Positions 3,439-20,363 of a DNA stretch of 21,316 nt are shown in pieces. The DNA lies in the IMG/VR virus record IMGVR_UViG_3300045988_115137, one strand, 5' to 3'. A program made the position numbers and the translations under genes. Position 1 is the first letter of the stretch. Each line of letters opens with the position of its first letter. Source of the DNA: a virus. Taxonomy: Duplodnaviria > Heunggongvirae > Uroviricota > Caudoviricetes. The notes under the pieces were generated by a model that did not search any database, was not told where the DNA came from, and saw only the letters and a list, made by a program, of their open reading frames with translations.

Positions 3439-3710
3439 GTATTCGTATTGAAATTGGCGAACGTTATGTCGTTACCAGTGACAGCTTTCAGTTTATTCTC
3501 CACGAGAAAAAGAGAGCGGAAAGCGGTAAAAACGCCGGTCAGGAATGGCTGGCGGTGGTTGGTTATTACCCGAAATTAAGCCAGCTCGTTTCCGGCCTGA
3601 TGCATCACGATATTCTGACCGGAAGCGCAAAGTCTTTTGCTGATTTAAACGCGCAGGTTGAGCAACTCAGCAAGCGTTGTTCAGAGGCTTTTGGCTCATA
3701 TGGCCGTTAA
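3435..3710 (+). CDS. Hypothetical early protein (orf83 position)
   Basis: 91-aa ORF; ATG 3435 overlaps the upstream stop (ATGA); its 3' end overlaps the start of A by 11 nt. Confidence 0.5.
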   Translation: MSIRIEIGERYVVTSDSFQFILHEKKRAESGKNAGQEWLAVVGYYPKLSQLVSGLMHHDILTGSAKSFADLNAQVEQLSKRCSEAFGSYGR

Positions 3711-5979
3711 AGCCTCCGGGCGTTTTGTCCCTCCGTCAGCATTTGCCGCAGGCACCGGTGAGACGTTTACCGGTGCTTATGCATGGAACGCGCCACGCGA
3801 GGCCGTCGGGCGCGAAAGACCCCTTACACGTGACGAGATGCGTCAGGTGCAAGGTGTTTTATCCACGATTAATCGCCTGCCTTACTTTTTGCGCTCGCTG
3901 TTTACTTCACGCTATGACTACATCCGGCGCAATAAAAGCCCGGTGCACGGGTTTTATTTCCTCACATCCACTTTTCAGCGTCGTTTATGGCCGCGCATTG
4001 AGCGCGTTAATCAGCGCCATGAAATGAACACCGACGCGTCGTTGCTGTTTCTGTCAGAGCGTGACCACTATGCGCGCCTGCCTGGAATGAATGACAAGGA
4101 GCTGAAAAAGTTTGCCGCCCGTATCTCATCGCAGCTTTTCATAATGTATGAGGAACTCTGCGATGCCTGGGTGGATGCGCATGGCGAGAAAGAATCGCTG
4201 TTTACGGATGAGGCGCAGGCTCACCTGTATGGTCATGTTGCTGGCGCTGCACGTGCTTTCAATATTTCCCCGCTCTACTGGAAAAAATACCGTAAAGGGC
4301 AGATGACCACGAGGCAGGCATATTCTGCCATTGCCCGTCTGTTTAACGATGAATGGTGGACTCATCAGCTTAAAGGCCAGCGTATGCGCTGGCATGAGGC
4401 GTTACTGATTGCTGTCGGGGAGGTCAATAAAGACCGTTCTCCTTATGCCAGTAAACATGCCATTCGTGATGTGCGTGCGCGCCGCCAGGCAAATCTGGAA
4501 TTTCTTAAATCGTGTGACCTTGAAAACAGGGAAACCGGCGAGCGCATCGACCTTATCAGTAAGGTGATGGGCAGTATTTCTAATCCAGAAATTCGCCGGA
4601 TGGAGCTGATGAACACCATCGCCGGTATTGAGCGTTACGCCGCCGCAGAGGGTGATGTGGGGATGTTTATCACGCTGACCGCGCCGTCAAAGTATCACCC
4701 GACACGTCAGGTCGGAAAAGGCGAAAGTAAAACCGTGCAGCTTAATCACGGCTGGAACGATGAGGCATTTAATCCAAAGGATGCGCAGCGTTATCTCTGC
4801 CGTATCTGGAGCCTGATGCGCACGGCATTCAAGGATAATGATTTACAGGTCTACGGTTTGCGTGTCGTCGAGCCACACCACGACGGAACGCCGCACTGGC
4901 ATATGATGCTTTTTTGTAATTCACGCCAGCGTAACCAGATTATCGAAATCATGCGTCGCTATGCGCTCAAAGAGGATGGCGACGAAAGAGGAGCCGCGCG
5001 AAACCGTTTTCAGGCAAAACACCTTAACCGGGGCGGTGCTGCGGGATATATCGCGAAATACATTTCAAAAAACATCGACGGCTATGCACTGGATGGTCAG
5101 CTCGATAACGACACCGGCAGGCCGCTGAAAGACACTGCAGCGGCTGTTACCGCATGGGCGTCAACGTGGCGCATCCCGCAATTTAAAACGGTTGGCCTGC
5201 CGACAATGGGGGCTTACCGTGAACTACGCAAATTGCCGCGCGGCGTCAGCATTGCTGATGAGTTTGACGAGCGCGTCGAGGCTGCACGCGCCGCCGCAGA
5301 CAGTGGTGATTTTGCGTTGTATATCAGCGCGCAGGGTGGGGCAAATGTCCCGCGCGATTGTCAGACTGTCAGAGTCGCCCGTAGCCCGTCGGATGAAGTT
5401 AACGAGTACGAGGAAGAAGTCGAGAGAGTGGTCGGCATTTACGCGCCGCATCTCGGCGCGCGTCATATTCATATCACCAGAACGACGGACTGGCGCATTG
5501 TGCCGAAAGTTCCGGTCGTTGAGCCTTTGACTTTAAAAAGCGGCATCGCCGCGCCTCGGAGTCCTGTCAATAACTGTGGAAAGCTCACCGGTGGTGATAC
5601 TTCGTTACCGGCTCCCACACCTTCTGAGCACGCCGCAGCAGTGCTTAATCTGGTAGATGACGGTGTTATCGAATGGAATGACCCGGAGGTCGTGAGGGCG
5701 CTCAGAGGTGCATTAAAACACGGCCTGAGAAGACCAAACCGTCAGCAAAGAAACGGAAGCCCGTTAAAACCGCATGAAATAGCGCCATCGGCCAGACTGA
5801 CCCGGTCTGAACGATTGCAAATCACCCGTATCCGCGTTGACCTTGCTCAGAACGGTATCAGGCCGCAGCGATGGGAGCTTGAGGCGCTGGCGCGTGGCGC
5901 GACCGTAAATTATGACGGGAAAAAATTCACGTATCCGGTCGCTGATGAGTGGTCGGGATTCTGGCATCAATTTGAGTAA
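3700..5979 (+). CDS. A: Rolling-circle replication initiator endonuclease (P2 gpA-like)
   Basis: 759 aa from ATG 3700 (MAVKASGRF...); the track start at 3658 is a TTG codon. An HUH-type motif (PHWHMMLF) and a paired-tyrosine motif (GYIAKYISK, Y-x3-Y) are visible. Size is close to the ~761 aa I recall for P2 A. Confidence 0.9.
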   Translation: MAVKASGRFVPPSAFAAGTGETFTGAYAWNAPREAVGRERPLTRDEMRQVQGVLSTINRLPYFLRSLFTSRYDYIRRNKSPVHGFYFLTSTFQRRLWPRIERVNQRHEMNTDASLLFLSERDHYARLPGMNDKELKKFAARISSQLFIMYEELCDAWVDAHGEKESLFTDEAQAHLYGHVAGAARAFNISPLYWKKYRKGQMTTRQAYSAIARLFNDEWWTHQLKGQRMRWHEALLIAVGEVNKDRSPYASKHAIRDVRARRQANLEFLKSCDLENRETGERIDLISKVMGSISNPEIRRMELMNTIAGIERYAAAEGDVGMFITLTAPSKYHPTRQVGKGESKTVQLNHGWNDEAFNPKDAQRYLCRIWSLMRTAFKDNDLQVYGLRVVEPHHDGTPHWHMMLFCNSRQRNQIIEIMRRYALKEDGDERGAARNRFQAKHLNRGGAAGYIAKYISKNIDGYALDGQLDNDTGRPLKDTAAAVTAWASTWRIPQFKTVGLPTMGAYRELRKLPRGVSIADEFDERVEAARAAADSGDFALYISAQGGANVPRDCQTVRVARSPSDEVNEYEEEVERVVGIYAPHLGARHIHITRTTDWRIVPKVPVVEPLTLKSGIAAPRSPVNNCGKLTGGDTSLPAPTPSEHAAAVLNLVDDGVIEWNDPEVVRALRGALKHGLRRPNRQQRNGSPLKPHEIAPSARLTRSERLQITRIRVDLAQNGIRPQRWELEALARGATVNYDGKKFTYPVADEWSGFWHQFE

Positions 5980-6105: not shown

Positions 6106-6297
6106 ATGTTAAAGCCTGCAGATGTTAATTGTTTGAAAAGCGGTGGATTTAAAATGACTGTATCTGACTCTACTGAAACTCATGCTAAATGTATTTGGCA
6201 TGATAAAGAAGGAGTTTTGCACGAGGAGTCATTCTCCATTGATTTACTGGAAATAGCAGAGAGTAAAAGTGGTATGCTTTGTCGTCCACGTAAGTGA
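6106..6297 (+). CDS. Small hypothetical protein, first gene of the cargo operon
   Basis: ~63 codons from ATG 6106, with GGAG at 6096-6099. The track's 91-aa version starts at a TTG at 6022. Alternative in-frame ATGs exist at 6091 and 6154, so the start is uncertain. AT-rich; ends 27 nt before the 226-aa gene. Confidence 0.35.
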   Translation: MLKPADVNCLKSGGFKMTVSDSTETHAKCIWHDKEGVLHEESFSIDLLEIAESKSGMLCRPRK

Positions 6298-6324
6298 ATC
6301 ATAATAAAATTCACGGGGGAAAGT

Positions 6325-7005
6325 ATGAAACAATACAGCGAATTAGAAAACAATGTTAAGAGATTCATTGTTGAGCATGAAAAAGGGATTTCTATTGATG
6401 ATATTCATCATAAGTTCCGGATGAAGGATGGTCAGAATCGCAAGATGGCAGATTATCTTATTGATAATAAAAAGATAATTTTGGAGATGAAAAGTCTTTT
6501 TTCTGACAGGGTCAAGAATGTCAATGATAAACTGAATGAGTTGGTTAAAACTGATAGTTGGCTTGCAAAAAACTGGCATGGTGCTATTCATTTAGAAGAG
6601 TTGATAAAAAGACACCCAGACTCAAAGCGATTTAGAAATGATATAATGAACTTTGCTTATGAAAATATTAAAACAAAGATAGTTAAGGAAGCTAATAAGC
6701 AAATAAATGCAACAAAGGATGTTTTGGATTTAAATGACTCGATTGGCGGGTTGATTTTGTTAAATGATAATGTCTTTTCACATGAGTCTAATTATTTGTC
6801 AGATGAAATATTATATTTGCTAGGCACAAAGAGATATTCGAGTGTTGAGTTTGTGGTTTATATTGCAAAATTGATTGATAAACAGGTTGATGTTTGTGTG
6901 CTACTTGACAGTCAATCTAAAAATAAAAATTATATTGAATGGTATATGAATAATGTTTTTTTATTGAACTGGGCGTCTTTTAATAAATATGCAATAAAGA
7001 TGTAG
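6325..7005 (+). CDS. Hypothetical protein, candidate anti-phage defense component (226 aa, no recognisable domain)
   Basis: Clean ORF with a strong SD (GGGGGAAAG) 6 nt before ATG 6325. Lys/Asn/Ile-rich composition; about 30% GC by hand count of 6301-6360. Sits at the A-cos variable locus in the tin-like position and orientation. No Walker A, HNH, reverse-transcriptase or zinc-finger motif seen. Confidence 0.6.
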   Translation: MKQYSELENNVKRFIVEHEKGISIDDIHHKFRMKDGQNRKMADYLIDNKKIILEMKSLFSDRVKNVNDKLNELVKTDSWLAKNWHGAIHLEELIKRHPDSKRFRNDIMNFAYENIKTKIVKEANKQINATKDVLDLNDSIGGLILLNDNVFSHESNYLSDEILYLLGTKRYSSVEFVVYIAKLIDKQVDVCVLLDSQSKNKNYIEWYMNNVFLLNWASFNKYAIKM

Positions 7006-7324
7006 TGGTGTGGATGGATATGAAATGAGTCAACCAAGATGCACCTTGGTCAGTAATCTCATGTGAGATACCACATATAACACCAAAAGTGTCAGGTTGA
7101 TGGCCATTGTTCACCGTTTACAGCAGATTATGGTCAACGAAAATCTGACGCCTGACGAGCTGGTCGGGTGTGCCGAAATAGTCTGGGATAATTACGGGCG
7201 GTTTAACTATATCGGTCAGTCCAGAGTTGCGCCACCACCACGCAGACGATAGAGAACGCCGCCAGTCGTGAAACTTGTTTTCAGGCTGGCGGGGTTGAAC
7301 AACGAGCGAAGTGAGGCGTTAGCA

Positions 7325-8266
7325 TTAAGTTAATTTTAATGAATGGTACTCTATCGAGCTGATTGTAGATGCGATATATTTACGATCATTTACAGAGAGT
7401 ATTGCCGCTAGTAGACGACATACCAGAGCCTGCATTTGTAGCAATATATCGCTACCATATTGACAATCATTGATACTAGAGAAACCAAGCGGTTGCCCAT
7501 TAAAAATGGCTTCATGAAAATTATCATTGCGTATAACTGAAACATTACATTCATCTGTTGCCCATGACGGGATTTTTACACCGTAATTTTCGCACATCCA
7601 ATATACTCTATTTTGATGAGATGGTTTTTTCTCTTTAATGACTTTATCCCTTTCATCCCATGCTATAGCAAAACAGCAATCAAGAGCCATATAAAGATAC
7701 TGGAATTTCTCAAAGGAAAGGTATAGTGGGTTATGTGACAGGAATAGGGAGTGTATCACCGCAGCTATTCTTTTAATGGAGCGATCATCTTTTTGTTTGT
7801 CTTTTATATAGTTAAGTGCTAGCTCTATTACTTCTTTTTCAGAGCATCCAACGAGAATAAAGTCGGTTAACTTAGTGGGCTTGATAGTGGTTGCATCAAG
7901 AAAACCAGCGTCAGTGGTTGTCAATCTTATACCCTTGAAAAAAGAGAGGCACCACACAACAAAGTTGAGAGTTTCTAACGAGGATGTGTTTTTTAATTTT
8001 AGTGTGTGCGTTTTGGGCATGCCGAATACTCGGTAACTATAAGGCATTGTGCATGTGTCACCATTAAGGTTATATACCTTTCGATTCCCAGGGTATATCC
8101 AACCATTAACAACGTTTTTATCATTGTTAATACGTTCCACGTTCTCAATAAGACCGGGTAAAGTACGCAAAGAAAATTGTTCAGTCTCAATGTTAACTTC
8201 TACTGGATAGTATCCAAACTCCGAAATAATCTCATTTGGTTGCTGTTCGTCAACTTCACCTTGCAT
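7325..8266 (-). CDS. Hypothetical protein, candidate anti-phage defense/abortive-infection component (313 aa, no recognisable domain)
   Basis: ORF with ATG at 8264-8266 (minus) preceded by GGAGAAAG at 6-nt spacing. AT-rich. Transcribed leftward from the cos-proximal side, like old in P2, but it lacks the Walker A/ATPase signature expected of Old. Confidence 0.6.
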   Translation of the reverse strand: MQGEVDEQQPNEIISEFGYYPVEVNIETEQFSLRTLPGLIENVERINNDKNVVNGWIYPGNRKVYNLNGDTCTMPYSYRVFGMPKTHTLKLKNTSSLETLNFVVWCLSFFKGIRLTTTDAGFLDATTIKPTKLTDFILVGCSEKEVIELALNYIKDKQKDDRSIKRIAAVIHSLFLSHNPLYLSFEKFQYLYMALDCCFAIAWDERDKVIKEKKPSHQNRVYWMCENYGVKIPSWATDECNVSVIRNDNFHEAIFNGQPLGFSSINDCQYGSDILLQMQALVCRLLAAILSVNDRKYIASTISSIEYHSLKLT

Positions 8267-8504
8267 AACTTTCTCCGTTCAAAAACAGGCACGATAATTC
8301 TCGTAAGCCTATCATGTTCGCAAAGTATCCATACCTGTGGATTTTGTAAATTTAAGTTGATTTGTCATTAAATAAGCCGTTGCATGCAACAAGTGAATGT
8401 TTTTGCATGCGTCGGGGATGTCCGTTCAGGCTGCGTGCGGTCAGGACTGGTGCGGATCCATAGTATCTATGCAACTGCATTAAAACCGCCCCATGAAGCG
8501 GGCG

Positions 8505-8523
8505 GGCGAGGCGGGGAAAGCAC
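8505..8523. other. cos site (19-nt cohesive end sequence, P2-type)
   Basis: The sequence GGCGAGGCGGGGAAAGCAC at 8505-8523 matches the P2 cohesive-end sequence as I recall it. It lies between the variable locus and portal gene Q, as in P2. Confidence 0.6.
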
Positions 8524-8555: not shown

Positions 8556-9725
8556 TCAGCGTCTCAGCGCGTCGTGACGGCGCTTAGTCTGCCCGTTGAG
8601 GCGTTGTGTGTCTGCGGGGTGTTTTGTGCGGTGGTGAGCGTGTGAGGGGGGATGACGGGGTGTAAAAAAGCCGCCCGAAGGCGGGGAGGTTATGCGCTGG
8701 TCAGTGTCCAGTGAGTAGTTTTTAAAGCGGATGACCTCCTGACCGAGCCAGCCGTTTATTTCCCGAATTCTGTCCTGTAACGGGATAAGCTCATTGCGGA
8801 CAAAGACCTTTGCCACTTTCTCAATATCTCCCAGTGACCCGACGTTCTCCGGCTTGCCGCCCATCAACTGAAAGGGGATACGGTGCGCGTCCAGCAGGTC
8901 AGCGGCGCTGGCTTTTTTGATATTAAAAAAATCGTCCTTCGTTGCCACTTCACTGAGCGGGATAATTTTAATGCCGTCGGCTTTCCCCTGCGGGGCATAG
9001 AGAAACAGGTTTTTAAAGTTGTTGCGGCCTTTCGACTTCACCATGTTTTCGCGAAGCGTTTCGATATCGTTGCGATCCTGCACGGCATCGGTGACGTACA
9101 TGATGTATCCGGCATGTGCGCCGTTTTCGTAATACTTGCGGCGGAACAGCGTGGCCGACTCATTCAGCCAGGCAGAATTAAGGGCGCTGAGATATTCCGG
9201 CAGGCCGTACAGCTCCTGATTAATATCCGGCTCCAGCAGGTGAAACACGGAGCCGGGCGCGAAGGCTGTCGGCTCGTTGAAGGACGGCACCCACCAGTAA
9301 ACATCCTCCTCCACGCCACGACGGGTATATTTGGCCGGTGAGGTTTCCAGTCTGATGACCTTACCGGTGGTGCTGTAACGCTTTTCCAGAAACGCATTAC
9401 CGAACACCAGAAAATCCAGCACAAAGCGGCTGAAATCCTGTTGCGAAAGCCACGGATGCGGGATAAATGTCGAGGCCAGAATATTGCGTTTAACGTAAAT
9501 CGGTGAGCTGTGATGCACGGCAGCACGCAGGCTTTTTGCCAGACCGGTAAAGCTGACCGGCGGCTCATACCATCTGCCGTTACTGATGCACTCGACGTAA
9601 TCCAGAATGTCACGGCGGTCGAGTACCGGCACCGGCTCACCAAAGGTGAATGCCTCCATTTTCGGGGCGCTGGCGGTCATTGTTTTTGCCGCAGGTTGCG
9701 GTGTTTTCCCTTTTTTCTTGCTCAT
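8556..9725 (-). CDS. Q: Portal protein (P2 gpQ-like); ORF as found carries a probable C-terminal read-through extension
   Basis: 389-aa ORF starting MSKKKGKTPQ..., with its ATG overlapping the stop of P (TGATG). I recall P2 Q as 344 aa. The last ~45 codons are Pro/Arg/His-rich and cross the terminator hairpin, so the true product probably ends near plus-coordinate 8691. Confidence 0.85.
   Translation of the reverse strand: MSKKKGKTPQPAAKTMTASAPKMEAFTFGEPVPVLDRRDILDYVECISNGRWYEPPVSFTGLAKSLRAAVHHSSPIYVKRNILASTFIPHPWLSQQDFSRFVLDFLVFGNAFLEKRYSTTGKVIRLETSPAKYTRRGVEEDVYWWVPSFNEPTAFAPGSVFHLLEPDINQELYGLPEYLSALNSAWLNESATLFRRKYYENGAHAGYIMYVTDAVQDRNDIETLRENMVKSKGRNNFKNLFLYAPQGKADGIKIIPLSEVATKDDFFNIKKASAADLLDAHRIPFQLMGGKPENVGSLGDIEKVAKVFVRNELIPLQDRIREINGWLGQEVIRFKNYSLDTDQRITSPPSGGFFTPRHPPSHAHHRTKHPADTQRLNGQTKRRHDALRR
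8664..8685 (-). terminator. Putative intrinsic terminator at the end of the leftward P-Q late operon
   Basis: On the minus strand a GC stem CCGCC / GGCGG with a 4-nt loop is followed directly by TTTTTT (plus strand: AAAAAA 8664-8669, then CCGCC-CGAA-GGCGG 8671-8684). Confidence 0.45.
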
Positions 9726-11497
9726 CAGTAAAACTCCAGAATGGTGGATGTCAGCGGGGTGCTGATACCGGCGGTGAGTGGCTCATTTAACAGGGCGTGC
9801 ATGGTCGCCCAGGCGAGGTCGGCGTGGCTGGCTTCCTCGCTGCGGCTGGCCTCATAGGTGGCGCTGCGTCCGCTGCTGGTCATGGTCTTGCGGATAGCCA
9901 TAAACGAGCTGGTGATGTCGGTGGCGCTGACGTCATATTCCAGACAGCCACGGCGGATAACGTCTTTTGCCTTGAGCACCATTGCGGTTTTCATTTCCGG
10001 CGTGTAGCGGATATCGCGCGCGGCGGGATAGAACGAGCGCACGAGCTGGAACACGCCGACACCGAGGCCGGTGGCATCAATTCCGATGTATTCGACGTTG
10101 TATTTTTCGGTGAGTTTGCGGATGGATTCAGCCTGAGTGGCAAAGTCCATGCCTTTCCACTGGTGACGCTCAAGTATTCTGAATTTGCCACCGGCCACCA
10201 CCGGCGGTGCCAGTACCACGCATCCGGCGCTGTCGCCACGGTGTGACGGGTCGTAACCAATCCATACCGGTCGGGAGCCGAACGGATTTGCGGCAAACGG
10301 CGCATAGTCTTCCCATTCTTCCAGCGTGTCGACCATGCAGCGTTGCAGCTCCTCGAACGGGAATACCGACGCCTTGTCGTCAACAAATTCACACATGAAC
10401 AGGTTTTTAAAATCGTCGGCGCTGTTTTCGCGTTTAAGCTGCTCAATGTCGAACAATGTGCAGCCACCTTTCAGGGCGTCCTCAATGGTGACAATCTGCC
10501 GCCACTGGCCGTCCGCACAGAGAAGACCTCCGGCAAGGGCGTTATGACTGACGTCGATTTCCACGCGTTCGGCGGCGCTGGCGCGTCCCCGGTTAAACAG
10601 TTCACCGGACCAGAACGGATAGGCGTCGTGCGCCAGCGTGGACGGGGTGGAGAAATAGGTCGAGCGCAGGTGACTCTGTGAGGCCATACCTGATGCCACC
10701 TTACGCAGTACCTGAAAATTCGGGATCCAGAAAATCTCGTCGACGTACAGGTCGCCGTTATGGCTCTGTGCGGTGTTGGAGTTGGTGCCGAGAAAAATCA
10801 GTTTTGCGCCGTTATTGCCCAGGACAATCGGGTCACCGGTCAGGTCAACGTCAACCAGCCGGGCAAAGGCGATGATGTATTCACGGAACACATACGCCTG
10901 CGTTTTACTGGCCGACAGAAAAATCTGGTTATGACCGGTTTTCAGGGCGCGCAGCAGTGCCTCGCGGGAAAAATAAAACGTCGCGCCAATCTGGCGGGAT
11001 TTCAGGATATCGCGGATGCGGTGCTCAAGCCCGGCGCGATACCAGTGCAACTGATAGTCGAAAGACTGCTCAAAGAAAATCTGCTCCAGCTTTTCGATGG
11101 CCTCGTCACTGAAAAAATTTTTTTTCGGTTTGCGCCGCCCGCCTTTGTTGCGGTTAGCGACGTTCGGATTAAGGTCTGCCTCGTTGCCGGTCTGGCTGTA
11201 ACGATTTACCCGTGCCAGTCGTTCAATCTGGCGTCCCAGCAGGTCAATTTCCTTGAAGTCACCGCCGGTTTTCTGCGGTTTGATGATGAGCTGGGTCAGC
11301 CGCGCTTCCAGGCTCATTTCGACACGGCTGATGGGGGCAACGCTGTCCCAGCCGTCGCGCTGTTTCCAGCTCTGCACCGTCGGGCGTTTCATCTGCAACA
11401 TGGCGGCAATCTGCGGCACGGAAAACCCCTGCCAGTACAGCAGCGCCGCCTGACGACGCGGGTCGTGTAAAAGAGTGGTGTCTGTGGTGATGGTCAT
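9725..11497 (-). CDS. P: Terminase large (ATPase) subunit (P2 gpP-like)
   Basis: 590 aa from ATG 11495-11497 (MTITTDTT...); the track start at 11527 is a TTG. The length matches my recollection of P2 P. Its stop overlaps the Q start. Confidence 0.9.
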   Translation of the reverse strand: MTITTDTTLLHDPRRQAALLYWQGFSVPQIAAMLQMKRPTVQSWKQRDGWDSVAPISRVEMSLEARLTQLIIKPQKTGGDFKEIDLLGRQIERLARVNRYSQTGNEADLNPNVANRNKGGRRKPKKNFFSDEAIEKLEQIFFEQSFDYQLHWYRAGLEHRIRDILKSRQIGATFYFSREALLRALKTGHNQIFLSASKTQAYVFREYIIAFARLVDVDLTGDPIVLGNNGAKLIFLGTNSNTAQSHNGDLYVDEIFWIPNFQVLRKVASGMASQSHLRSTYFSTPSTLAHDAYPFWSGELFNRGRASAAERVEIDVSHNALAGGLLCADGQWRQIVTIEDALKGGCTLFDIEQLKRENSADDFKNLFMCEFVDDKASVFPFEELQRCMVDTLEEWEDYAPFAANPFGSRPVWIGYDPSHRGDSAGCVVLAPPVVAGGKFRILERHQWKGMDFATQAESIRKLTEKYNVEYIGIDATGLGVGVFQLVRSFYPAARDIRYTPEMKTAMVLKAKDVIRRGCLEYDVSATDITSSFMAIRKTMTSSGRSATYEASRSEEASHADLAWATMHALLNEPLTAGISTPLTSTILEFY

Positions 11498-11670
11498 GAA
11501 TACCTCGCCGTGATGAATACACGGCAAGGCTACTGAGTCGCGCCCCGCGATTCGCTAAGGTGCTGTTGTGTCAGTGATAAGCCATCCGGGACTGATGGCG
11601 GAGGATGCGCATCGTCGGGAAACTGATGCCGACATGTGACTCCTCTAATCACTATTCAGGACTCCTGACA
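11498..11670. promoter_or_regulatory. Divergent late promoter region between P and O (putative)
   Basis: 173-bp interval between the divergent P (minus) and O (plus) starts, where P2 places two activator-dependent late promoters. I found no exact TGT-N12-ACA dyad by eye, so this is positional inference only. Confidence 0.3.
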
Positions 11671-12525
11671 ATGGCAAAAAAAGTCTCAAAATTCTTTCGT
11701 ATCGGCGTTGAGGGTGACACCTGTGACGGGCGTGTCATCAGTGCGCAGGATATTCAGGAAATGGCCGAAACCTTTGACCCGCGTGTCTATGGTTGCCGCA
11801 TTAACCTGGAACATCTGCGCGGCATCCTGCCTGACGGTATTTTTAAGCGTTATGGCGATGTGGCCGAACTGAAGGCCGAAAAGATTGACGATGATTCGGC
11901 GCTGAAAGGCAAATGGGCGCTGTTTGCGAAAATCACCCCGACCGATGACCTTATCGCGATGAACAAGGCTGCGCAGAAGGTCTACACCTCAATGGAAATT
12001 CAGCCGAACTTTGCCAACACCGGCAAATGTTATCTGGTGGGTCTGGCCGTCACCGATGACCCGGCAAGCCTCGGCACGGAATACCTGGAATTCTGCCGCA
12101 CGGCAAAACACAACCCTCTGAACCGCTTCAAATTAAGCCCTGAAAACCTGATTTCAGTGGCAACGCCTGTTGAGCTGGAATTTGAAGACCTGCCTGAAAC
12201 CGTGTTCACCGCCCTGACCGAAAAGGTGAAATCCATTTTTGGCCGCAAACAGGCCAGCGATGACGCCCGTCTGAATGACGTGCATGAAGCGGTGACCGCT
12301 GTTGCTGAACATGTGCAGGAAAAACTGAGCACCACTGAGCAGCGCCTCGCTGAGATGGAAAACGCCTTTTCCGCACTTAAGCAGGATGTGACTGACAGGG
12401 CGGATGAAACCAGCCAGGCATTCACCCGCCTGAAAAACAGTCTCGACCACACCGAAAGTCTGACCCAGCAGCGCCGCAGCAAGGCCACCGGCGGTGGCGG
12501 TGACGCCCTGATGACGAACTGCTGA
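11671..12525 (+). CDS. O: Capsid scaffolding protein (P2 gpO-like)
   Basis: 284 aa from ATG 11671 (MAKKVSKFF...); the track start at 11605 is upstream and in frame. The length matches P2 O as recalled. It is directly upstream of the major capsid gene. Confidence 0.85.
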   Translation: MAKKVSKFFRIGVEGDTCDGRVISAQDIQEMAETFDPRVYGCRINLEHLRGILPDGIFKRYGDVAELKAEKIDDDSALKGKWALFAKITPTDDLIAMNKAAQKVYTSMEIQPNFANTGKCYLVGLAVTDDPASLGTEYLEFCRTAKHNPLNRFKLSPENLISVATPVELEFEDLPETVFTALTEKVKSIFGRKQASDDARLNDVHEAVTAVAEHVQEKLSTTEQRLAEMENAFSALKQDVTDRADETSQAFTRLKNSLDHTESLTQQRRSKATGGGGDALMTNC

Positions 12526-12583
12526 CCGGCGTCAGTCAGTCCGGGAAAACCTTCACGATTAACCCTTAATTTCAGGAAAAACT

Positions 12584-13657
12584 ATGCGCCAGGAAACCCG
12601 CTTTAAATTTAATGCCTACCTGTCCCGTGTTGCCGAACTGAACGGCATCGACGCCGGTGATGTGTCGAAAAAATTCACCGTTGAACCGTCGGTCACCCAG
12701 ACCCTGATGAACACCATGCAGGAGTCCTCTGACTTTCTGACCCGCATCAACATTGTGCCGGTCAGCGAAATGAAAGGGGAAAAAATTGGTATTGGTGTCA
12801 CCGGCTCCATTGCCAGCACCACCGACACCGCCGGTGGCACCGAGCGTCAGCCGAAGGACTTCTCGAAGCTGGCGTCAAACAAGTACGAATGCGACCAGAT
12901 TAATTTCGATTTTTATATCCGCTACAAAACGCTGGACCTGTGGGCGCGTTATCAGGATTTCCAGCTCCGTGTCCGTAACGCCATTATCAAACGCCAGTCC
13001 CTTGATTTCATCATGGCCGGTTTTAACGGCGTGAGGCGTGCCGAAACCTCTGACCGCAGCAGCAATCCGATGCTGCAGGATGTGGCGGTCGGCTGGCTGC
13101 AGAAATACCGCAATGAAGCCCCGGCGCGCGTGATGAGCAAGGTCACTGACGAGGAAGGTCACACGACCTCTGAGGTCATCCGCGTGGGTAAGGGCGGTGA
13201 TTATGCCAGCCTCGATGCACTGGTGATGGATGCGACCAACAACCTGATTGAGCCGTGGTATCAGGAAGACCCTGACCTTGTGGTGATTGTGGGGCGTCAG
13301 CTACTGGCGGACAAGTATTTCCCCATCGTTAACAAGGAGCAGGACAACAGCGAGATGCTGGCCGCTGACGTCATCATCAGCCAGAAACGCATCGGCAACC
13401 TGCCGGCGGTACGCGTCCCGTACTTCCCGGCGGATGCGATGCTCATCACGAAGCTGGAAAACCTGTCCATCTACTACATGGATGACAGCCATCGCCGCGT
13501 GATTGAGGAAAACCCGAAACTCGACCGCGTGGAGAACTACGAGTCAATGAATATTGATTACGTGGTGGAAGACTACGCCGCCGGTTGTCTGGTGGAAAAA
13601 ATTAAGGTCGGTGATTTCTCCACACTGGCTAAAGCGACCGCAGAGCCGGGAGCGTAA
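12584..13657 (+). CDS. N: Major capsid protein (P2 gpN-like)
   Basis: 357-aa ORF with ATG at 12584 and an AGGA-type SD; length and position match P2 N. Confidence 0.9.
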   Translation: MRQETRFKFNAYLSRVAELNGIDAGDVSKKFTVEPSVTQTLMNTMQESSDFLTRINIVPVSEMKGEKIGIGVTGSIASTTDTAGGTERQPKDFSKLASNKYECDQINFDFYIRYKTLDLWARYQDFQLRVRNAIIKRQSLDFIMAGFNGVRRAETSDRSSNPMLQDVAVGWLQKYRNEAPARVMSKVTDEEGHTTSEVIRVGKGGDYASLDALVMDATNNLIEPWYQEDPDLVVIVGRQLLADKYFPIVNKEQDNSEMLAADVIISQKRIGNLPAVRVPYFPADAMLITKLENLSIYYMDDSHRRVIEENPKLDRVENYESMNIDYVVEDYAAGCLVEKIKVGDFSTLAKATAEPGA

Positions 13658-13660
13658 CCG

Positions 13661-14404
13661 ATGACGAGTCCCGCACAGCGCCACATGATGCGGGTCTCGG
13701 CAGCGATGACCGCGCAGCGGGAAGCCGCCCCGCTGCGACATGCAACTGTCTATGAGCAGATGCTGGTTAAGCTCGCCGCAGACCAGCGCACACTGAAAGC
13801 GATTTATTCAAAAGAGCTGAAGGCCGCGAAAAAACGCGAACTGCTGCCGTTCTGGTTGCCGTGGGTGAACGGCGTGCTGGAGCAGGGCAAAGGTGCACAG
13901 GATGACATTCTGATGACAGTCATGCTGTGGCGTCTGGATACCGGCGATATTGCCGGTGCGCTGGAGATTGCCCGTTATGCCCTGAAGTACGGTCTGACCA
14001 TGCCGGGTAAACACCGCCGCACCCCGCCGTACATGTTCACCGAGGAGGTGGCGCTCGCGGCCATGCGCGCTCACGCTGCCGGTGAGTCTGTGGATCCCCG
14101 CCTGCTGACGGACACCCTTGAACTGACCGCCACGGCTGACATGCCTGATGAAGTGCGCGCAAAGCTGCACAAAATCACCGGTCTGTTTCTGCGTGACGCT
14201 GGTGATGCCGCAGGGGCGCTGGCACACCTGCAACGTGCGACACAGCTCGACTGTCAGGCAGGCGTCAAAAAAGAGATTGAACGACTGGAGCGGGAGCTGA
14301 AACCGAAGCCGGAGCCACAACTCAAAGCGGCCACCCGCGCCCCGCGTAAGACCCGGAGCGTGACACCGGCAAAACGTGGACGCCCGAAAAAGAAAGCCAG
14401 TTAA
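13661..14404 (+). CDS. M: Terminase small/endonuclease subunit (P2 gpM-like)
   Basis: 247-aa ORF with a basic Lys/Arg-rich C-terminus, directly after N; length matches P2 M as recalled. Confidence 0.85.
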   Translation: MTSPAQRHMMRVSAAMTAQREAAPLRHATVYEQMLVKLAADQRTLKAIYSKELKAAKKRELLPFWLPWVNGVLEQGKGAQDDILMTVMLWRLDTGDIAGALEIARYALKYGLTMPGKHRRTPPYMFTEEVALAAMRAHAAGESVDPRLLTDTLELTATADMPDEVRAKLHKITGLFLRDAGDAAGALAHLQRATQLDCQAGVKKEIERLERELKPKPEPQLKAATRAPRKTRSVTPAKRGRPKKKAS

Positions 14405-14503
14405 CAACCGAATGCGCCCCGCGCCAGGGCGGCACGCCGGTCAGTGTGGGTGAATCACCTGACACTGCACCGGCGTCCACCGCCCTACTTTTCAGAGGTA
14501 GTC

Positions 14504-15013
14504 ATGATGACGCTGATTATTCCGCGAAAGGAGGCTCCCGTGTCCGGTGAGGGTACGGTGGTCATCCCGCAACCGGCAGGCGACGAGCCGGTGATTAAAA
14601 ACACGTTCTTTTTTCCCGATATCGACCCGAAGCGCGTCCGGGAACGTATGCGCCTTGAGCAGACCGTCGCCCCCGCCCGTCTGCGTGAGGCCATCAAGTC
14701 AGGCATGGCGGAGACGAATGCGGAGCTGTACGAGTACCGCGAACAGAAAATTGCCGCCGGTTTTACGCGTCTGGCGGACGTCCCGGCGGACGACATCGAC
14801 GGTGAAAGCATCAGGGTTTTTTACTACGAGCGCGCCGTGTGTGCGATGGCGACCGCATCGCTTTATGAGCGTTATCGCGGCGTGGATGCCAGTGCGAAAG
14901 GCGACAAGAAGGCCGACAGCATTGACAGCACCATTGATGAGCTGTGGCGGGATATGCGCTGGGCGGTGGCGCGTATCCAGGACAAGCCGCGCTGCATCGT
15001 GAGTCAAATCTGA
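14504..15013 (+). CDS. L: Head completion/stabilisation protein (P2 gpL-like)
   Basis: 169 aa from ATG 14504 (MMTLIIPRK...); the track start at 14444 is upstream and in frame. Length matches P2 L; its stop overlaps the X start (TGATG). Confidence 0.8.
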   Translation: MMTLIIPRKEAPVSGEGTVVIPQPAGDEPVIKNTFFFPDIDPKRVRERMRLEQTVAPARLREAIKSGMAETNAELYEYREQKIAAGFTRLADVPADDIDGESIRVFYYERAVCAMATASLYERYRGVDASAKGDKKADSIDSTIDELWRDMRWAVARIQDKPRCIVSQI

Positions 15014-15216
15014 TGAAGACCTTTGCGCTACAGGGCGACACGCTCGACGCCATTTGTGTCCGGTATTACGGGCGCACTGAGGGCGTGGTTGAGACCGTGC
15101 TCGCCGCAAATCCGGGACTGGCTGAACTGGGCGCGGTGCTGCCACACGGCACCGCCGTCGAACTGCCCGACGTTCAGACCGCGCCCGTGGCTGAAACTGT
15201 CAATCTGTGGGAGTAA
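15013..15216 (+). CDS. X: Tail protein X (P2 gpX-like)
   Basis: 67 aa from ATG 15013 (MKTFALQGD...); the track start at 14944 is upstream. Length matches P2 X. Confidence 0.75.
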   Translation: MKTFALQGDTLDAICVRYYGRTEGVVETVLAANPGLAELGAVLPHGTAVELPDVQTAPVAETVNLWE

Positions 15217-15219
15217 CGC

Positions 15220-15501
15220 ATGACAGCAGAAGAAAAAAGCGTCCTGTCGCTTTTCATGATTGGGGTGCTGATTGTTGTCGGCAAGGTGCTTGCCGGTGGT
15301 GAACCCATCACCCCGCGTCTGTTTATCGGGCGCATGTTGCTCGGTGGTTTTGTCTCGATGGTTGCCGGTGTTGTTCTGGTGCAGTTTCCTGACCTGTCAC
15401 TGCCTGCAGTGTGCGGCATCGGCTCCATGCTGGGTATCGCCGGTTATCAGGTGATTGAGATTGCCATTCAGCGCCGCTTTAAGGGCAGGGGGAAACCGTA
15501 A
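15220..15501 (+). CDS. Y: Holin (P2 gpY-like)
   Basis: 93-aa ORF with hydrophobic transmembrane-like segments and a charged C-terminus, directly upstream of the endolysin; length matches P2 Y. Confidence 0.75.
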   Translation: MTAEEKSVLSLFMIGVLIVVGKVLAGGEPITPRLFIGRMLLGGFVSMVAGVVLVQFPDLSLPAVCGIGSMLGIAGYQVIEIAIQRRFKGRGKP

Positions 15502-15998
15502 TGCCGGTAATTAACACGCATCAGAATATCGCCGCCTTTCTCGACATGCTGGCGGTATCCGAAGGGACGGCGAATCATCCGCTGACGAAAAACCGTGGCT
15601 ATGACGTGATAGTCACCGGACTGGACGGGAAGCCGGAAATTTTCACCGACTACAGTGACCACCCGTTCGCGCATGGCCGACCGGCGAAGGTGTTTAACCG
15701 TCGCGGTGAAAAATCCACGGCCTCCGGTCGCTATCAGCAGCTTTACCTGTTCTGGCCGCATTACCGCAAACAGCTTGCCCTGCCGGATTTCAGTCCGTTG
15801 TCACAGGACAGACTCGCCATTCAGTTGATCCGCGAACGCGGTGCGCTGGATGACATCCGGGCGGGACGCATTGAGCGCGCCATTTCACGCTGTCGCAATA
15901 TCTGGGCGTCCCTGCCGGGTGCCGGTTACGGTCAGCGTGAGCATTCACTGGAAAAACTGGTCACCGTCTGGCGTACCGCTGGCGGCGTACCGGCTTAA
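15501..15998 (+). CDS. K: Endolysin (P2 gpK-like)
   Basis: 165-aa ORF directly after the holin; ATG 15501 overlaps the Y stop. Length matches P2 K. Confidence 0.8.
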   Translation: MPVINTHQNIAAFLDMLAVSEGTANHPLTKNRGYDVIVTGLDGKPEIFTDYSDHPFAHGRPAKVFNRRGEKSTASGRYQQLYLFWPHYRKQLALPDFSPLSQDRLAIQLIRERGALDDIRAGRIERAISRCRNIWASLPGAGYGQREHSLEKLVTVWRTAGGVPA

Positions 15999-16012
15999 AC
16001 GGAGTAAACACC

Positions 16013-16438
16013 ATGAAGAAATTATCCCTTTCACTGATGCTGAACGTGTCGCTGGCGCTGATGCTGGCACTGTCCCTGATTTACCCGCAGAGCGTGGCCG
16101 TCAATTTTGTCGCCGCCTGGGCGATTCTGGCGATGGTTATCTGTGTGGTTGCCGGTGGTGTCGGCGTGTATGCCACTGAGTATGTGCTGGAACGCTACGG
16201 GCGGGAGCTGCCGCCGGAATCGCTGGCCGTGAAGATTGTCCCGTCGCTGTTTTTGCAGCCGGTGCCGTGGCGCAGACGGGCGGCGGCTCTGGTTGTGATG
16301 GTGGCGACATTTATCTCGCTGGTCGCTGCCGGGTGGATTTTTACCGCGCTGATTTATCTCGTAGCGTCGCTGTTTTTCCGGCTGATACGCACGGCCTGCC
16401 GTCAGCGTCTTGAGGGGCGGGAATTATGTCAAAGCTGA
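16013..16438 (+). CDS. lysA: Lysis-timing membrane protein LysA
   Basis: 141-aa ORF, strongly hydrophobic with several predicted transmembrane segments; GGAG SD at 16001-16004; P2 lysA position and length. Confidence 0.65.
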   Translation: MKKLSLSLMLNVSLALMLALSLIYPQSVAVNFVAAWAILAMVICVVAGGVGVYATEYVLERYGRELPPESLAVKIVPSLFLQPVPWRRRAAALVVMVATFISLVAAGWIFTALIYLVASLFFRLIRTACRQRLEGRELCQS

Positions 16439-16851
16439 TGATTGTGCTGGTCGTGTTGTTATCGCTGGCGGTGGCGGGTCTGTTTCTGGCGAAGCATAAA
16501 AACGCCAGCCTGCGCACCTTACTGGACAGGGCAAACAACGTAGCCAGCGAGCAGCAGACGACCATCACCATGCTGAAAAAGCAGCTTCATGTTGCCCTCA
16601 CCAGGGCAGACAAAAACGAGCTGGCGCAGGTGGCACTGCGTCAGGAGCTGGAGAACGCTGCGAAGCGTGAAGCACAGCGCGAGAAAACCATCACGAGGTT
16701 ACTTAATGAAAACGAGGATTTTCGCCGCTGGTACGGTGCTGACCTGCCTGATGCTGTGCGCCGGTTGCACCAGCGCCCCGCCTGCACCGACGCCAGTGAT
16801 TGTCCACAACGACTGCCCGAAAGTGAGTCTTTGCCCGATGCCGGGCAGTGA
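16426..16851 (+). CDS. lysB: Inner-membrane spanin LysB (Rz-like)
   Basis: 141-aa ORF with an N-terminal transmembrane segment and a charged, coiled-coil-like periplasmic region; it contains the out-of-frame nested lysC gene. Confidence 0.7.
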   Translation: MSKLMIVLVVLLSLAVAGLFLAKHKNASLRTLLDRANNVASEQQTTITMLKKQLHVALTRADKNELAQVALRQELENAAKREAQREKTITRLLNENEDFRRWYGADLPDAVRRLHQRPACTDASDCPQRLPESESLPDAGQ

Positions 16852-16996
16852 CCCGGAGACGAACGGCGATTTAAGTGCCGATATCCGGCAGCTTGAGAAC
16901 GCGCTGGCACGCTGTGCCAGCCAGGTAAAAATGATTAAACACTGTCAGGACGAAAACGATGCTCAAACCCGACAGCCTGCGCAGGGCGCTGACTGA
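16706..16996 (+). CDS. lysC: Outer-membrane lipoprotein spanin LysC (Rz1-like), nested in the lysB +1 frame
   Basis: 96 aa from ATG 16706 (MKTRIFAAGTVLTCLMLCAGCTS...). It has a lipoprotein signal peptide with lipobox LCAGC followed by a Pro-rich segment. Length matches P2 LysC as recalled. Confidence 0.65.
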   Translation: MKTRIFAAGTVLTCLMLCAGCTSAPPAPTPVIVHNDCPKVSLCPMPGSDPETNGDLSADIRQLENALARCASQVKMIKHCQDENDAQTRQPAQGAD

Positions 16997-17426
16997 TGCC
17001 GTCACGGTGCTGAAAACCAGTCCCGAGATGCTGCGGATATTTGTGGATAGCGGGAGTATTGCCTCCACGCTGGCGACGTCGCTGTCATTCGAAAAGCGTT
17101 ACACGCTCAATGTGATTGTGACCGACTTTACCGGTGATTTTAACCTGCTCATCGTGCCGGTGCTGGCGTGGCTGCGGGAAAATCAGCCCGACATCATGAC
17201 CACCGACGAAGGCCTGAAAAAGGGCTTCACGTTTTATGCAGACATCAACAATGACAGCAGCTTTGATATCAGCATCAGCCTGATGCTGACCGAGCGCACG
17301 CTGGTCAGTGAGGTGGACGGCGCGCTGCATGTGAAGAATATCCCGGAACCCACGCCGCCGGAGCCGGTCACCCGCCCGATGGAGCTTTATATCAATGGCG
17401 AACTGGTGAGTAAGTGGGATGAATGA
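16959..17426 (+). CDS. R: Tail completion protein R
   Basis: 155-aa ORF; P2 R length and position. Confidence 0.75.
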   Translation: MLKPDSLRRALTDAVTVLKTSPEMLRIFVDSGSIASTLATSLSFEKRYTLNVIVTDFTGDFNLLIVPVLAWLRENQPDIMTTDEGLKKGFTFYADINNDSSFDISISLMLTERTLVSEVDGALHVKNIPEPTPPEPVTRPMELYINGELVSKWDE

Positions 17427-17871
17427 GTTTAAGCGTTTTGAAGACCGGCTGACCGGACTGATTGAATCGCTGTCACCGTCAGGGCGTCGGCGACTGAGCG
17501 CCGAACTGGCGAAACGTCTGCGGCAGAGTCAGCAGCGTCGGGTGATGGCACAGAAAGCCCCGGACGGCACACCCTACGCGCCACGCCAGCAGCAGAGCGC
17601 CAGAAAAAAGACTGGTCGTGTTAAGCGAAAAATGTTTGCGAAACTTATCACCAGTCGTTTTTTGCATATCCGCGCCAGCCCGGAACAGGCATCAATGGAG
17701 TTTTACGGCGGGAAGTCACCGAAAATCGCCAGTGTGCATCAGTTCGGTCTGTCGGAAGAAAACCGGAAAGACGGTAAGAAAATTGATTATCCGGCGCGTC
17801 CCCTGCTCGGCTTTACCGGTGAGGATGTGCAGATGATTGAAGAGATTATTCTGGCGCACCTCGACCGTTAG
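17419..17871 (+). CDS. S: Tail completion protein S
   Basis: 150-aa ORF; P2 S length and position; its start overlaps the R stop. Confidence 0.75.
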   Translation: MNEFKRFEDRLTGLIESLSPSGRRRLSAELAKRLRQSQQRRVMAQKAPDGTPYAPRQQQSARKKTGRVKRKMFAKLITSRFLHIRASPEQASMEFYGGKSPKIASVHQFGLSEENRKDGKKIDYPARPLLGFTGEDVQMIEEIILAHLDR

Positions 17872-17903
17872 TTGTGCCATTCCCGACACCTCATCGTCAC
17901 ATT

Positions 17904-17925
17904 GCCGCCGGTATGACCCGGCGGC
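17904..17925 (+). promoter_or_regulatory. Perfect 8-bp GC stem-loop in the S-V intergenic region (putative late-promoter/operon-boundary element)
   Basis: GCCGCCGG-TATGAC-CCGGCGGC at 17904-17925, ending 12 nt before the V ATG. A TGT-N10-ACA partial dyad lies at 17873-17888. P2 has a late promoter in front of V. Confidence 0.3.
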
Positions 17926-17937
17926 ATCCTTCCCGTT

Positions 17938-18573
17938 ATGAACACTCTCGCAAATATTCAGGAACTCGCGCGCGCACTGCGCAACATGATCCGCACCGGC
18001 ATTATCGTCGAAACCGACCTTAACGCCGGTCGCTGCCGTGTGCAGACCGGCGGCATGTGCACCGACTGGCTTCAGTGGCTGACCCATCGCGCCGGTCGTT
18101 CGCGCACATGGTGGGCACCTTCCGTGGGGGAACAGGTGCTGATTCTGGCCGTGGGCGGTGAACTCGACACGGCATTCGTTCTGCCGGGGATTTATTCCGA
18201 CGATAACCCCGCGCCGTCTGCGTCGGCGGATGCCCTGCATATCCGTTTCCCTGACGGGGCGGTGATTGAGTATGAACCCGAAACCAGTGCACTTACGGTA
18301 AGCGGAATTAAAACGGCCAGCGTGACGGCTTCTGATTCTGTTACTGCCACGGTGCCGGTGGTCATGGTGAAAGCATCAACCCGCGTCACCCTGGACACAC
18401 CGGAGGTGGTCTGCACCAACAGGCTGATTACCGGCACGCTGGAAGTGCAGAAGGGCGGGACGATGCGCGGCAACATTGAACACACCGGCGGTGAACTCTC
18501 ATCAAACGGTAAGGTACTGCATACCCATAAACACCCCGGCGACAGTGGCGGCACAACCGGGAGTCCTCTATGA
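17938..18573 (+). CDS. V: Baseplate spike/hub protein (P2 gpV-like)
   Basis: 211-aa ORF; P2 V length and position, first gene of the baseplate/tail-fibre operon. Confidence 0.85.
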   Translation: MNTLANIQELARALRNMIRTGIIVETDLNAGRCRVQTGGMCTDWLQWLTHRAGRSRTWWAPSVGEQVLILAVGGELDTAFVLPGIYSDDNPAPSASADALHIRFPDGAVIEYEPETSALTVSGIKTASVTASDSVTATVPVVMVKASTRVTLDTPEVVCTNRLITGTLEVQKGGTMRGNIEHTGGELSSNGKVLHTHKHPGDSGGTTGSPL

Positions 18574-18917
18574 CAGCGCGTTATCTTGGAATGAATCGCA
18601 GTGATGGCCTGACTGTCACTGACCTTGAGCATATCAGCCAGAGTATCGGCGATATCCTGCGCACGCCGGTCGGCTCACGGGTGATGCGTCGTGATTACGG
18701 CTCGTTGCTGGCGTCAATGATTGACCAGCCGCAGACTCCGGCGCTTGAGTTGCAGATTAAGGTCGCCTGTTACATGGCGGTGCTGAAATGGGAACCCCGC
18801 GTCACCCTGTCATCCGTCACCACTGAGCGCAGTTTTGACGGGCGAATGACTGTCACTTTGACCGGCCAGCACAACGACACCGGCCAGCCACTTTCGTTAA
18901 CCATCCCTGTGAGTTGA
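18570..18917 (+). CDS. W: Baseplate wedge protein (P2 gpW-like)
   Basis: 115-aa ORF; its ATG overlaps the V stop; P2 W length. Confidence 0.8.
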   Translation: MTARYLGMNRSDGLTVTDLEHISQSIGDILRTPVGSRVMRRDYGSLLASMIDQPQTPALELQIKVACYMAVLKWEPRVTLSSVTTERSFDGRMTVTLTGQHNDTGQPLSLTIPVS

Positions 18918-18921
18918 AACC

Positions 18922-19830
18922 ATGCCGATTATCGACCTGAACCAGCTACCCGCACCGGATGTGGTCGAGGAGCTGGACTTTGAAACCATTCTTGCCGAAC
19001 GCAAGGCGACACTGATTTCCCTTTACCCGGAAGACCAGCAGGAGGCGGTTGCCCGTACCCTGACGCTGGAATCCGAGCCTCTCGTCAAACTGCTGGAGGA
19101 AAATGCTTATCGTGAGCTTATCTGGCGTCAGCGTGTGAATGAGGCCGCACGGGCGGTGATGCTGGCCTGTGCCGCCGGTAATGACCTTGATGTGATTGGT
19201 GCCAATTACAACACCACGCGCCTGACTATCACCCCGGCAGATGATTCGACTATCCCGCCGACACCGGCAGTGATGGAGTCTGACACCGATTATCGTCTGC
19301 GTATTCAGCAGGCGTTTGAGGGCTTAAGCGTCGCCGGGTCGGTGGGAGCCTATCAGTATCATGGTCGCAGTGCCGACGGGCGTGTCGCGGATATCTCGGT
19401 CACCAGTCCGTCTCCGGCCTGCGTCACCATCTCTGTGCTGTCACGTGAAAATAACGGTGTGGCATCCGAAGACCTGCTGGCCGTGGTGCGTAACGCCCTT
19501 AATGGCGAGGACGTCAGGCCGGTGGCCGACCGCGTGACCGTGCAGTCTGCCACCATTGTTGAATACCAGATAAACGCCACGCTTTACCTTTACCCTGGTC
19601 CCGAAAGCGAACCCATCCGCGCTGCTGCCGTGAAAAAACTGGAAGCGTACATCACGGCGCAGCACCGGCTGGGGCGCGACATCCGTCTGTCTGCCATTTA
19701 TGCCGCTTTGCATGTGGAAGGCGTGCAGCGTGTCGAGCTGGCCGCACCACTGGCCGACATTGTGCTCAACAGTACGCAGGCGTCTTTCTGTACCGAATAC
19801 CGCGTCGTGACCGGAGGCTCGGATGAGTGA
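18922..19830 (+). CDS. J: Baseplate assembly protein (P2 gpJ-like)
   Basis: 302-aa ORF; P2 J length and position. Confidence 0.85.
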   Translation: MPIIDLNQLPAPDVVEELDFETILAERKATLISLYPEDQQEAVARTLTLESEPLVKLLEENAYRELIWRQRVNEAARAVMLACAAGNDLDVIGANYNTTRLTITPADDSTIPPTPAVMESDTDYRLRIQQAFEGLSVAGSVGAYQYHGRSADGRVADISVTSPSPACVTISVLSRENNGVASEDLLAVVRNALNGEDVRPVADRVTVQSATIVEYQINATLYLYPGPESEPIRAAAVKKLEAYITAQHRLGRDIRLSAIYAALHVEGVQRVELAAPLADIVLNSTQASFCTEYRVVTGGSDE

Positions 19831-20353: not shown

Positions 20354-20363
20354 GTGAGGAATA

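Follow-up and report, generated by a model that had tools for sequence, protein, structure and literature searches.

Organisation of the locus

The DNA analysed here, referred to as the window, is a stretch of 21,316 nt that belongs to a P2-like (Peduovirus) prophage. The integrase gene is found at 97-1092 on the minus strand and the replication gene A at 3658-5979 on the plus strand, and the portal gene Q and the terminase gene P occupy 8556-11527 on the minus strand, with the late genes beyond. Between A and Q the GC content drops from 52-58% to 30-41%. Two low-GC cargo units lie in this interval: a minus-strand gene encoding a protein of 313 amino acids (ORF313, 7325-8266), and a DUF2158 ORF with ORF226 on the plus strand (6106-7005).

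ORF313 starts with an ATG and was read from the ORF list and its translation; the same CDS is annotated in both RefSeq and GenBank, and the leftward 313-aa frame described in an earlier note on this DNA is thus the right one. Its Shine-Dalgarno sequence, GGAGAAAG, is found at 8269-8276 on the minus strand, with its GGAG core ending 6 nt before the ATG, as the same note had read it, and the P2-EC67 record annotates a ribosome-binding site at the equivalent place. The low GC content that had been remarked upon amounts to 37.2%, against 56.9% in the structural region (8556-21316). Five pairwise comparisons between the window gene and other alleles gave dN/dS values of 0.15-0.28, which show that ORF313 is a selected coding gene and no chance ORF.

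The 19-nt cohesive-end sequence cos, at 8505-8523 on the plus strand, is an exact match to cosR of P2 (NC_001895, 33575-33593) and marks the border of the cargo hotspot. A distance of 239 nt separates cos from the ATG of ORF313, which reads toward A. In P2 itself, old (31620-33380, complement strand) is likewise directed toward A and lies some 195 nt inside cosR (NC_001895). The similar distance to cos and the same orientation make the positional analogy between the two genes correct, and the assignment of ORF313 to the slot of old, proposed on reading the sequence, stands. Both are the first gene inside cosR, and both are low-GC cargo. The likeness ends there, since P2 Old combines an OLD-family ABC ATPase with a TOPRIM nuclease, to which ORF313 is unrelated in sequence and fold. 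ORF313 has no Walker A motif (neither G....GK[ST] nor [AG]....GK[ST] is retrieved by regular expression) and no AAA or TOPRIM match in Pfam; it is also about half as long (313 versus 586 aa). The lack of an ATPase signature and the halved size had both been pointed out before, and rightly so. A candidate promoter-like site (ATGACA, 16 nt, CAAAAT; 9 of 12 consensus matches) was picked up by a consensus scan at 8341-8368 on the minus strand, in a region between cos and ORF313 that, as a whole, is not enriched in such matches over shuffled sequences. The analogy for this candidate comes from P2, where old-tin is served by a separate promoter located between cos and old.

Two local peculiarities of the interval are worth recording. 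The canonical stop codon of the portal gene is absent from the 3' end of Q (8556-8710, minus strand): the ORF reads 45 codons further, to 8556, and would encode 389 instead of 344 amino acids, running across the terminator hairpin and stopping some 30 nt away from cos. Compared with other P2-like phages, the sequence is altered over a patch of 17 nt (around 8690-8706), which was not retrieved at >96% identity from any of the complete E. coli genomes. The change may be a genuine variant, a scar left by recombination or a sequencing error. In the space that separates the two cargo units, a 51-aa plus-strand ORF (7097-7252) carries in RefSeq the PGAP label 'meiotically up-regulated 80 protein', which is odd for a prophage ORF; no family match was found for it.

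A widespread family of hypothetical proteins

Although it had been described as an orphan, ORF313 belongs to a large family. It matches PHROG 5937, of unknown function, from end to end (E 5e-199) and is the ORF313 deposited with P2-EC67, from ECOR67. RefSeq and the phage genomes label it as a hypothetical protein (WP_032179103-like). A total of 260 matches were obtained in a 90%-cluster database, and in an exhaustive profile search the family amounted to 653 clusters at 50% identity, of which 191 scored below E 1e-30. With few exceptions, the full-length members comprise 290-325 amino acids. No Pfam, NCBIfam or PADLOC model matches ORF313, and the same holds for the 64 relatives scanned.

Among 5426 complete E. 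coli genomes, 99 (about 2%) carry ORF313, including ST131 lineages, and three allele groups can be distinguished there by their nucleotide identity (about 100%, 84% and 74%). In species-representative genomes, 77 loci of the family were found, in Gamma-, Beta- and Alphaproteobacteria and, in addition, in single genomes of Latescibacterota, Planctomycetota, Acidobacteria, Longimicrobiales and Thermomicrobiales.

Genomic companions and mobility

The genes that accompany ORF313 differ from one element to the next. In Yersinia phage vB_YpM_46, a 98.7% identical copy is found with Orf91 and a small ORF only, DUF2158 and ORF226 being absent. A relative in a 186-like prophage of Salmonella diarizonae is accompanied only by DinI and a 60-aa ORF. 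The allele of ST131-type P2 prophages lies with ImmA/IrrE and a hypothetical protein, and a third P2 arrangement combines ORF313 with DinI and another hypothetical protein. In E. coli SC476, the gene is located at the edge of a different prophage. Outside these settings, a relative in a P22-like Acinetobacter prophage is an opposite-strand moron between the portal and capsid genes, another, in an integrative element of P. aeruginosa, is separated by about 3 kb from an OLD/UvrD pair resembling Gabija, and in Aeromonas the relative is found amid ordinary chromosomal genes. The ORFs of at least 70 aa within 5 kb of the gene were clustered for 73 loci, representing 58 genera, and none of the neighbours recurred in more than 8 of these genera. 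ORF313 moves as an independent single-gene module.

In Sphingopyxis and related integrative elements (loci L054-L076), the ORF313 relative is followed, at a distance of about 300 nt downstream, by a same-strand gene for a protein of about 298 aa with an RNKSIAH motif, and these elements appear, from the motifs, to hold two HEPN-like genes in tandem. The tandem lies near genes for an ImuB/DnaE2-type polymerase and for conjugation. The second gene was considered as a conserved partner and set aside, being lineage-specific.

A candidate for a partner in the window itself is the plus-strand unit, and the earlier note had envisaged ORF313 as a second component acting with it. ORF313 would then be half of a two-part system with DUF2158 and ORF226, the two units being mutually dependent. 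Their association in E. coli is indeed complete in one direction: DUF2158 and ORF226 occur together in 27 of the 5426 complete genomes, each time adjoining an ORF313 allele, and in ten of these cases ORF226 is about 99% identical while ORF313 is only about 85% identical. The trio was also already present in P2-EC67. In the other direction the association breaks down, since 72 of the 99 ORF313-bearing E. coli genomes and about 95 other ORF313 loci, the nearly identical copy of vB_YpM_46 among them, are devoid of ORF226. Relatives of ORF226 are likewise found without ORF313 in a P2-like prophage of Citrobacter and on Pantoea IncFII plasmids, where they stand alone. The two units are, moreover, convergent and separately transcribed. 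ORF226 matches no known domain and belongs to a narrow family of 26 clusters within the Enterobacterales. A mutually dependent pair is thus very improbable, each of the two proteins occurring without the other; the units are independent modules, linked by chance in one E. coli lineage.

Conserved residues and predicted fold

Only seven columns are invariant when 54 relatives, sharing 24-50% identity, are aligned, namely H87, G112, E186, R246, H251, G261 and R284, with N247 and E252 conserved at 90% or more. The segment R246-N247-x3-H251 has the RNxxxH form of the HEPN Rx4-6H signature, which is also invariant in a set of 30 sequences. The corresponding codons, R246-N247-D-N-F-H251, lie at 7514-7531 on the minus strand; they specify the motif expected of a HEPN active site, which falls at the start of a predicted helix (242-255). 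The equivalent motif form is carried by validated ApeA proteins (RNLIVH, RNKITH).

Structure prediction, proposed earlier as a follow-up, produced an AF2 model (pLDDT 83.8, pTM 0.84, built on 30 sequences). Two regions can be delineated from it. The N-terminal region (residues 1-138; 7853-8266, minus strand) has a predicted alpha/beta secondary structure, with pLDDT mostly above 90, and is a putative sensor. Its first 80 residues are the most variable stretch of the protein, and its conserved motifs are PKTH (which includes the invariant H87), G112 with R114, and D135. The C-terminal region (residues 139-313; 7328-7852, minus strand) is predicted to be helical (helices 143-156, 161-176, 184-205, 217-228, 242-255 and 274-289) and is a putative HEPN-like domain. 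Outside RNxxxH, the best-conserved blocks are residues 81-90 (with PKTH), 101-135 and 171-199, none of which matched a known family. The loop that follows H251 (residues 251-268, HEAxFxxxPLGF) belongs to the best-conserved parts of the protein although its pLDDT is below 50; it may need an oligomer or a ligand to become ordered.

The comparison of this model with other structures was of modest help to the HEPN reading. Foldseek searches against the PDB and the BFVD viral models returned nothing significant. Weak matches to HepT were obtained, with 6m6u, 5yep and 7ae2 among the weak structural hits. Profile comparisons gave a similar picture: when the ApeA HEPN profile was aligned with hhalign, the motifs fell in register, but at E 0.13 and a probability of 0.4%, with a profile that is thin because the search behind it gave five sequences. 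The comparison of the family alignment (A2) with Ec2ApeA, which also brought the motifs into register, was not significant (probability 8%), nor was that with Ec1ApeA. The sole link to ApeA by name is the UniRef cluster of the relative P0098, called 'Apea-like HEPN'. The test with curated HEPN models is itself of low power, because the same copy of Pfam misses the validated Ec1 and Ec2 ApeA. The statement that ORF313 has no recognisable domain therefore holds for the Pfam, NCBIfam and PADLOC libraries, and it fails in so far as the invariant RNxxxH and the predicted fold suggest a HEPN protein. On the motif and the model, the HEPN assignment is likely, at about three chances in four.

Other leads were considered and abandoned. 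Cysteines that the closer relatives share had suggested a zinc site, which was dropped because the wider family does not keep them. In profile searches of PDB sequences, residues 1-60 gave matches to bacterial RyR chains (PF02026; E 0.12-0.34) and to a two-repeat chimera (E 0.0026), which are probably due to chance; no family member matches the Pfam RyR model even at E 10, and the hhalign comparison with a phage RyR-domain protein was empty. From the same kind of search, a weak, unconfirmed match of residues 242-281 to the N-terminus of NrdB, the R2 subunit of E. coli ribonucleotide reductase (E about 0.01), is probably fortuitous as well.

Comparison with known HEPN proteins

ApeA (Gao_Ape; Ec1ApeA WP_000706972, Ec2ApeA WP_032180471) provides a close parallel. 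It is encoded, like ORF313, by one gene with no partner, and combines a C-terminal RNxxxH HEPN motif, as found in ORF313, with N-terminal sensor regions, which in ORF313 are putative. ApeA cuts tRNA anticodon loops and causes abortive infection. It is also cargo of P2-like prophages, Ec2ApeA being found between the V and S genes. The two proteins differ in their architecture: ApeA comprises 583-601 residues in three domains, against 313 residues for ORF313, which has no counterpart of the ApeA N-terminal and Mid domains. ORF313 is not matched by the PADLOC ApeA model, and the hhalign E-value cited above is not significant; it is not a member of ApeA. The trigger of ApeA, 5'-phosphorylated deoxydinucleotides, cannot simply be assumed for ORF313. 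The P2-like prophage of E. coli JNQH497 illustrates this other insertion point, with Ec2ApeA (locus L020, 2605-4356) occupying a different P2 moron site, between baseplate gene V and the genes for tail completion; there too, RefSeq labels the gene as a hypothetical protein only, and no Pfam match is obtained.

DARNA (PD-T7-3) is another single HEPN protein that is activated by infection and cleaves tRNA anticodon loops, and ORF313 may be likened to it by analogy. Its order of domains is the reverse: in DARNA, which exceeds 400 aa, an N-terminal HEPN domain (R117, H122) precedes a large C-terminal ssDNA-binding domain, whereas the motif of ORF313 lies at residues 246-251 of 313. The PADLOC model for DARNA / PD-T7-3 did not match ORF313. 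HepS of the Gifsy-1 prophage and Tha of S. aureus prophages are, like ORF313, encoded by prophages and devoid of a conserved partner, and act as stand-alone HEPN abortive-infection proteins. HepS differs from ORF313 in being a minimal HEPN protein of less than 250 aa, with H105 as its catalytic residue, which senses a siphovirus tail-tip peptide and, once active, cuts tRNA anticodon loops as ApeA and DARNA do; no sequence relationship between HepS and ORF313 was detected. The helical core of ORF313 is also weakly similar to that of the HEPN toxins of HepT-MntA toxin-antitoxin pairs, from which ORF313 is set apart by an extra conserved N-terminal half and by the lack of an adjacent MNT antitoxin over the 73 loci from 58 genera. 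ORF313 represents a family of its own, with a putative sensor half that has not been described before, and would, as far as can be told, work like these systems.

Indications of a role in defence

The interval between A and Q of P2-like phages is a documented hotspot, where old and tin are found as well as several validated systems (PMC9122126). The arrangement with ORF313 appears in Table S5 of Rousset 2022 and is absent from the systems cloned in that study (PMC9122126); the validated 'hp+hp+hp' system of the same work was examined as a possible ORF313 locus and discarded, the sequences being different. In a later P2/P4 study, only P4 loci were put to the test. In the tables of DefensePredictor, the allele of ST131 (WP_001161722.1, 68% identical in amino acids) is entered as a 'putative novel defense gene' with a mean log-odds of 9.68, the strict cut-off being a log-odds of 4. 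The motifs of the family are absent from all the transcription units cloned for DefensePredictor, and a 311-aa entry of that study, WP_097419291, first taken for a possible relative, is an unrelated membrane protein. No phenotype of ORF313 is on record in the Rousset 2022 or DefensePredictor screens.

The neighbourhood of the family provides further indirect evidence. When the two closest genes on either side were inspected over 31 loci from different genera, PADLOC identified HmaB, Drt1a, PDC-S49, HEC-05, PDC-M06B, DpdC and mad2 among them, and Pfam recognised genes for conjugation, for integrases and for the capsid and portal of phages. The family is found on prophages, on integrative elements and in chromosomal islets beside defence genes, and not in strictly lytic phages.

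Proposed mechanism and alternative readings

We favour, with a little better than an even chance, the reading of ORF313 as a self-contained single-gene conflict module of the HEPN RNase type, seated in the cos-proximal hotspot of P2-like phages. This reading draws on the motif, the predicted fold, the stand-alone behaviour, the defence context and the analogy with characterised proteins. The HMM, Foldseek and hhalign comparisons without significant outcome, the poorly modelled loop after H251 and several neighbourhoods made up of ordinary chromosomal genes, such as that in Aeromonas, weigh against it. By the same analogy, ORF313 would most likely act as a stand-alone abortive-infection defence. 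Of the two roles suggested in the earlier note, this is the one favoured by the recurrence of the gene as an independent module, its unconserved neighbours, the defence and mobile-element genes among the nearest of them, the HEPN-type motif and the predictor score, the defensive role itself being deduced from these features.

Beyond the HEPN-like motif and the single-gene mobility, we infer by analogy every step of the following mechanism. The prophage would express ORF313 from a promoter of its own. The C-terminal helical half would be a HEPN-type RNase with an active site composed of R246, N247 and H251; like that of other HEPN enzymes, this site would probably assemble where the two subunits of a homodimer meet. 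The N-terminal and middle region, with H87 of the PKTH motif, R114, D135 and E186, would keep the enzyme off until a cue from the infecting phage is sensed. Once activated, the RNase would cut host RNA, with tRNA anticodon loops as the likeliest target judging from the validated stand-alone HEPN defences; translation would then halt and the infection would abort. A more specific version of this scheme would have the N-terminal and middle region act as a new type of sensor, which would bind a small molecule or a piece of nucleic acid produced in the course of infection and switch on the HEPN RNase allosterically. This version is tentative and, in our estimate, rather doubtful. If true, ORF313 would be a compact (about 300 aa) and broadly distributed sensor-effector immune protein, parallel to ApeA in its mechanism and separate from it in evolution.

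The HEPN assignment itself may be questioned, as the sequence-profile tests for HEPN all failed and the structural similarity is weak. There are also as many invariant residues outside RNxxxH as within it, and the motif could thus be a coincidence in some other enzyme, or in a binding protein, built around H87, R114, D135, E186, H217, R220 and R284. We hold this to be unlikely. Were the HEPN fold correct, ORF313 could still be a toxin that keeps the prophage stable as part of an addiction or toxin-antitoxin pair, with an unrecognised antitoxin, either a small protein or an RNA, encoded nearby. Many minimal HEPN proteins are indeed toxins paired with MNT antitoxins, the structural matches 6m6u, 5yep and 7ae2 bring such proteins to mind, and about 240 nt upstream and 70 nt downstream of ORF313 are unaccounted for. 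This arrangement is nevertheless quite improbable, given that no neighbouring ORF of at least 70 aa is conserved across genera, that no MNT-like gene is adjacent, and that the roughly 140 extra conserved N-terminal residues suit a protein which regulates itself.

A HEPN enzyme could also serve a purpose other than defence, either in counter-defence, for example by degrading cyclic-oligonucleotide signals, or in processing the RNA of the element. Some HEPN enzymes do deplete cyclic oligoadenylate signals (10.64898/2026.02.22.705581), and the P2 hotspot houses non-defensive cargo as well, such as partition systems and toxins (PMC9122126). The high score given by the defence predictor and the distribution of the family, which favours prophages, integrative elements and islets beside defence genes over strictly lytic phages, speak against such a role and leave it with a low probability, comparable to that of the addiction module.

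Significance

ORF313 is no surprise in kind, as defensive cargo in the P2 hotspot is what specialists would expect and the family had already been flagged by a predictor. Small, probably acting alone and endowed with clear putative catalytic residues, it offers a tractable protein for studying how a HEPN enzyme is silenced and then released by a phage cue. If the favoured reading is true, a function would be given to a gene that has been called 'hypothetical' since the P2-EC67 record, and a further position in the cos-proximal hotspot of P2 would be accounted for. A compact and very widespread family, found from Enterobacteria to Acidobacteria and Planctomycetota, would then join the stand-alone HEPN abortive-infection proteins.
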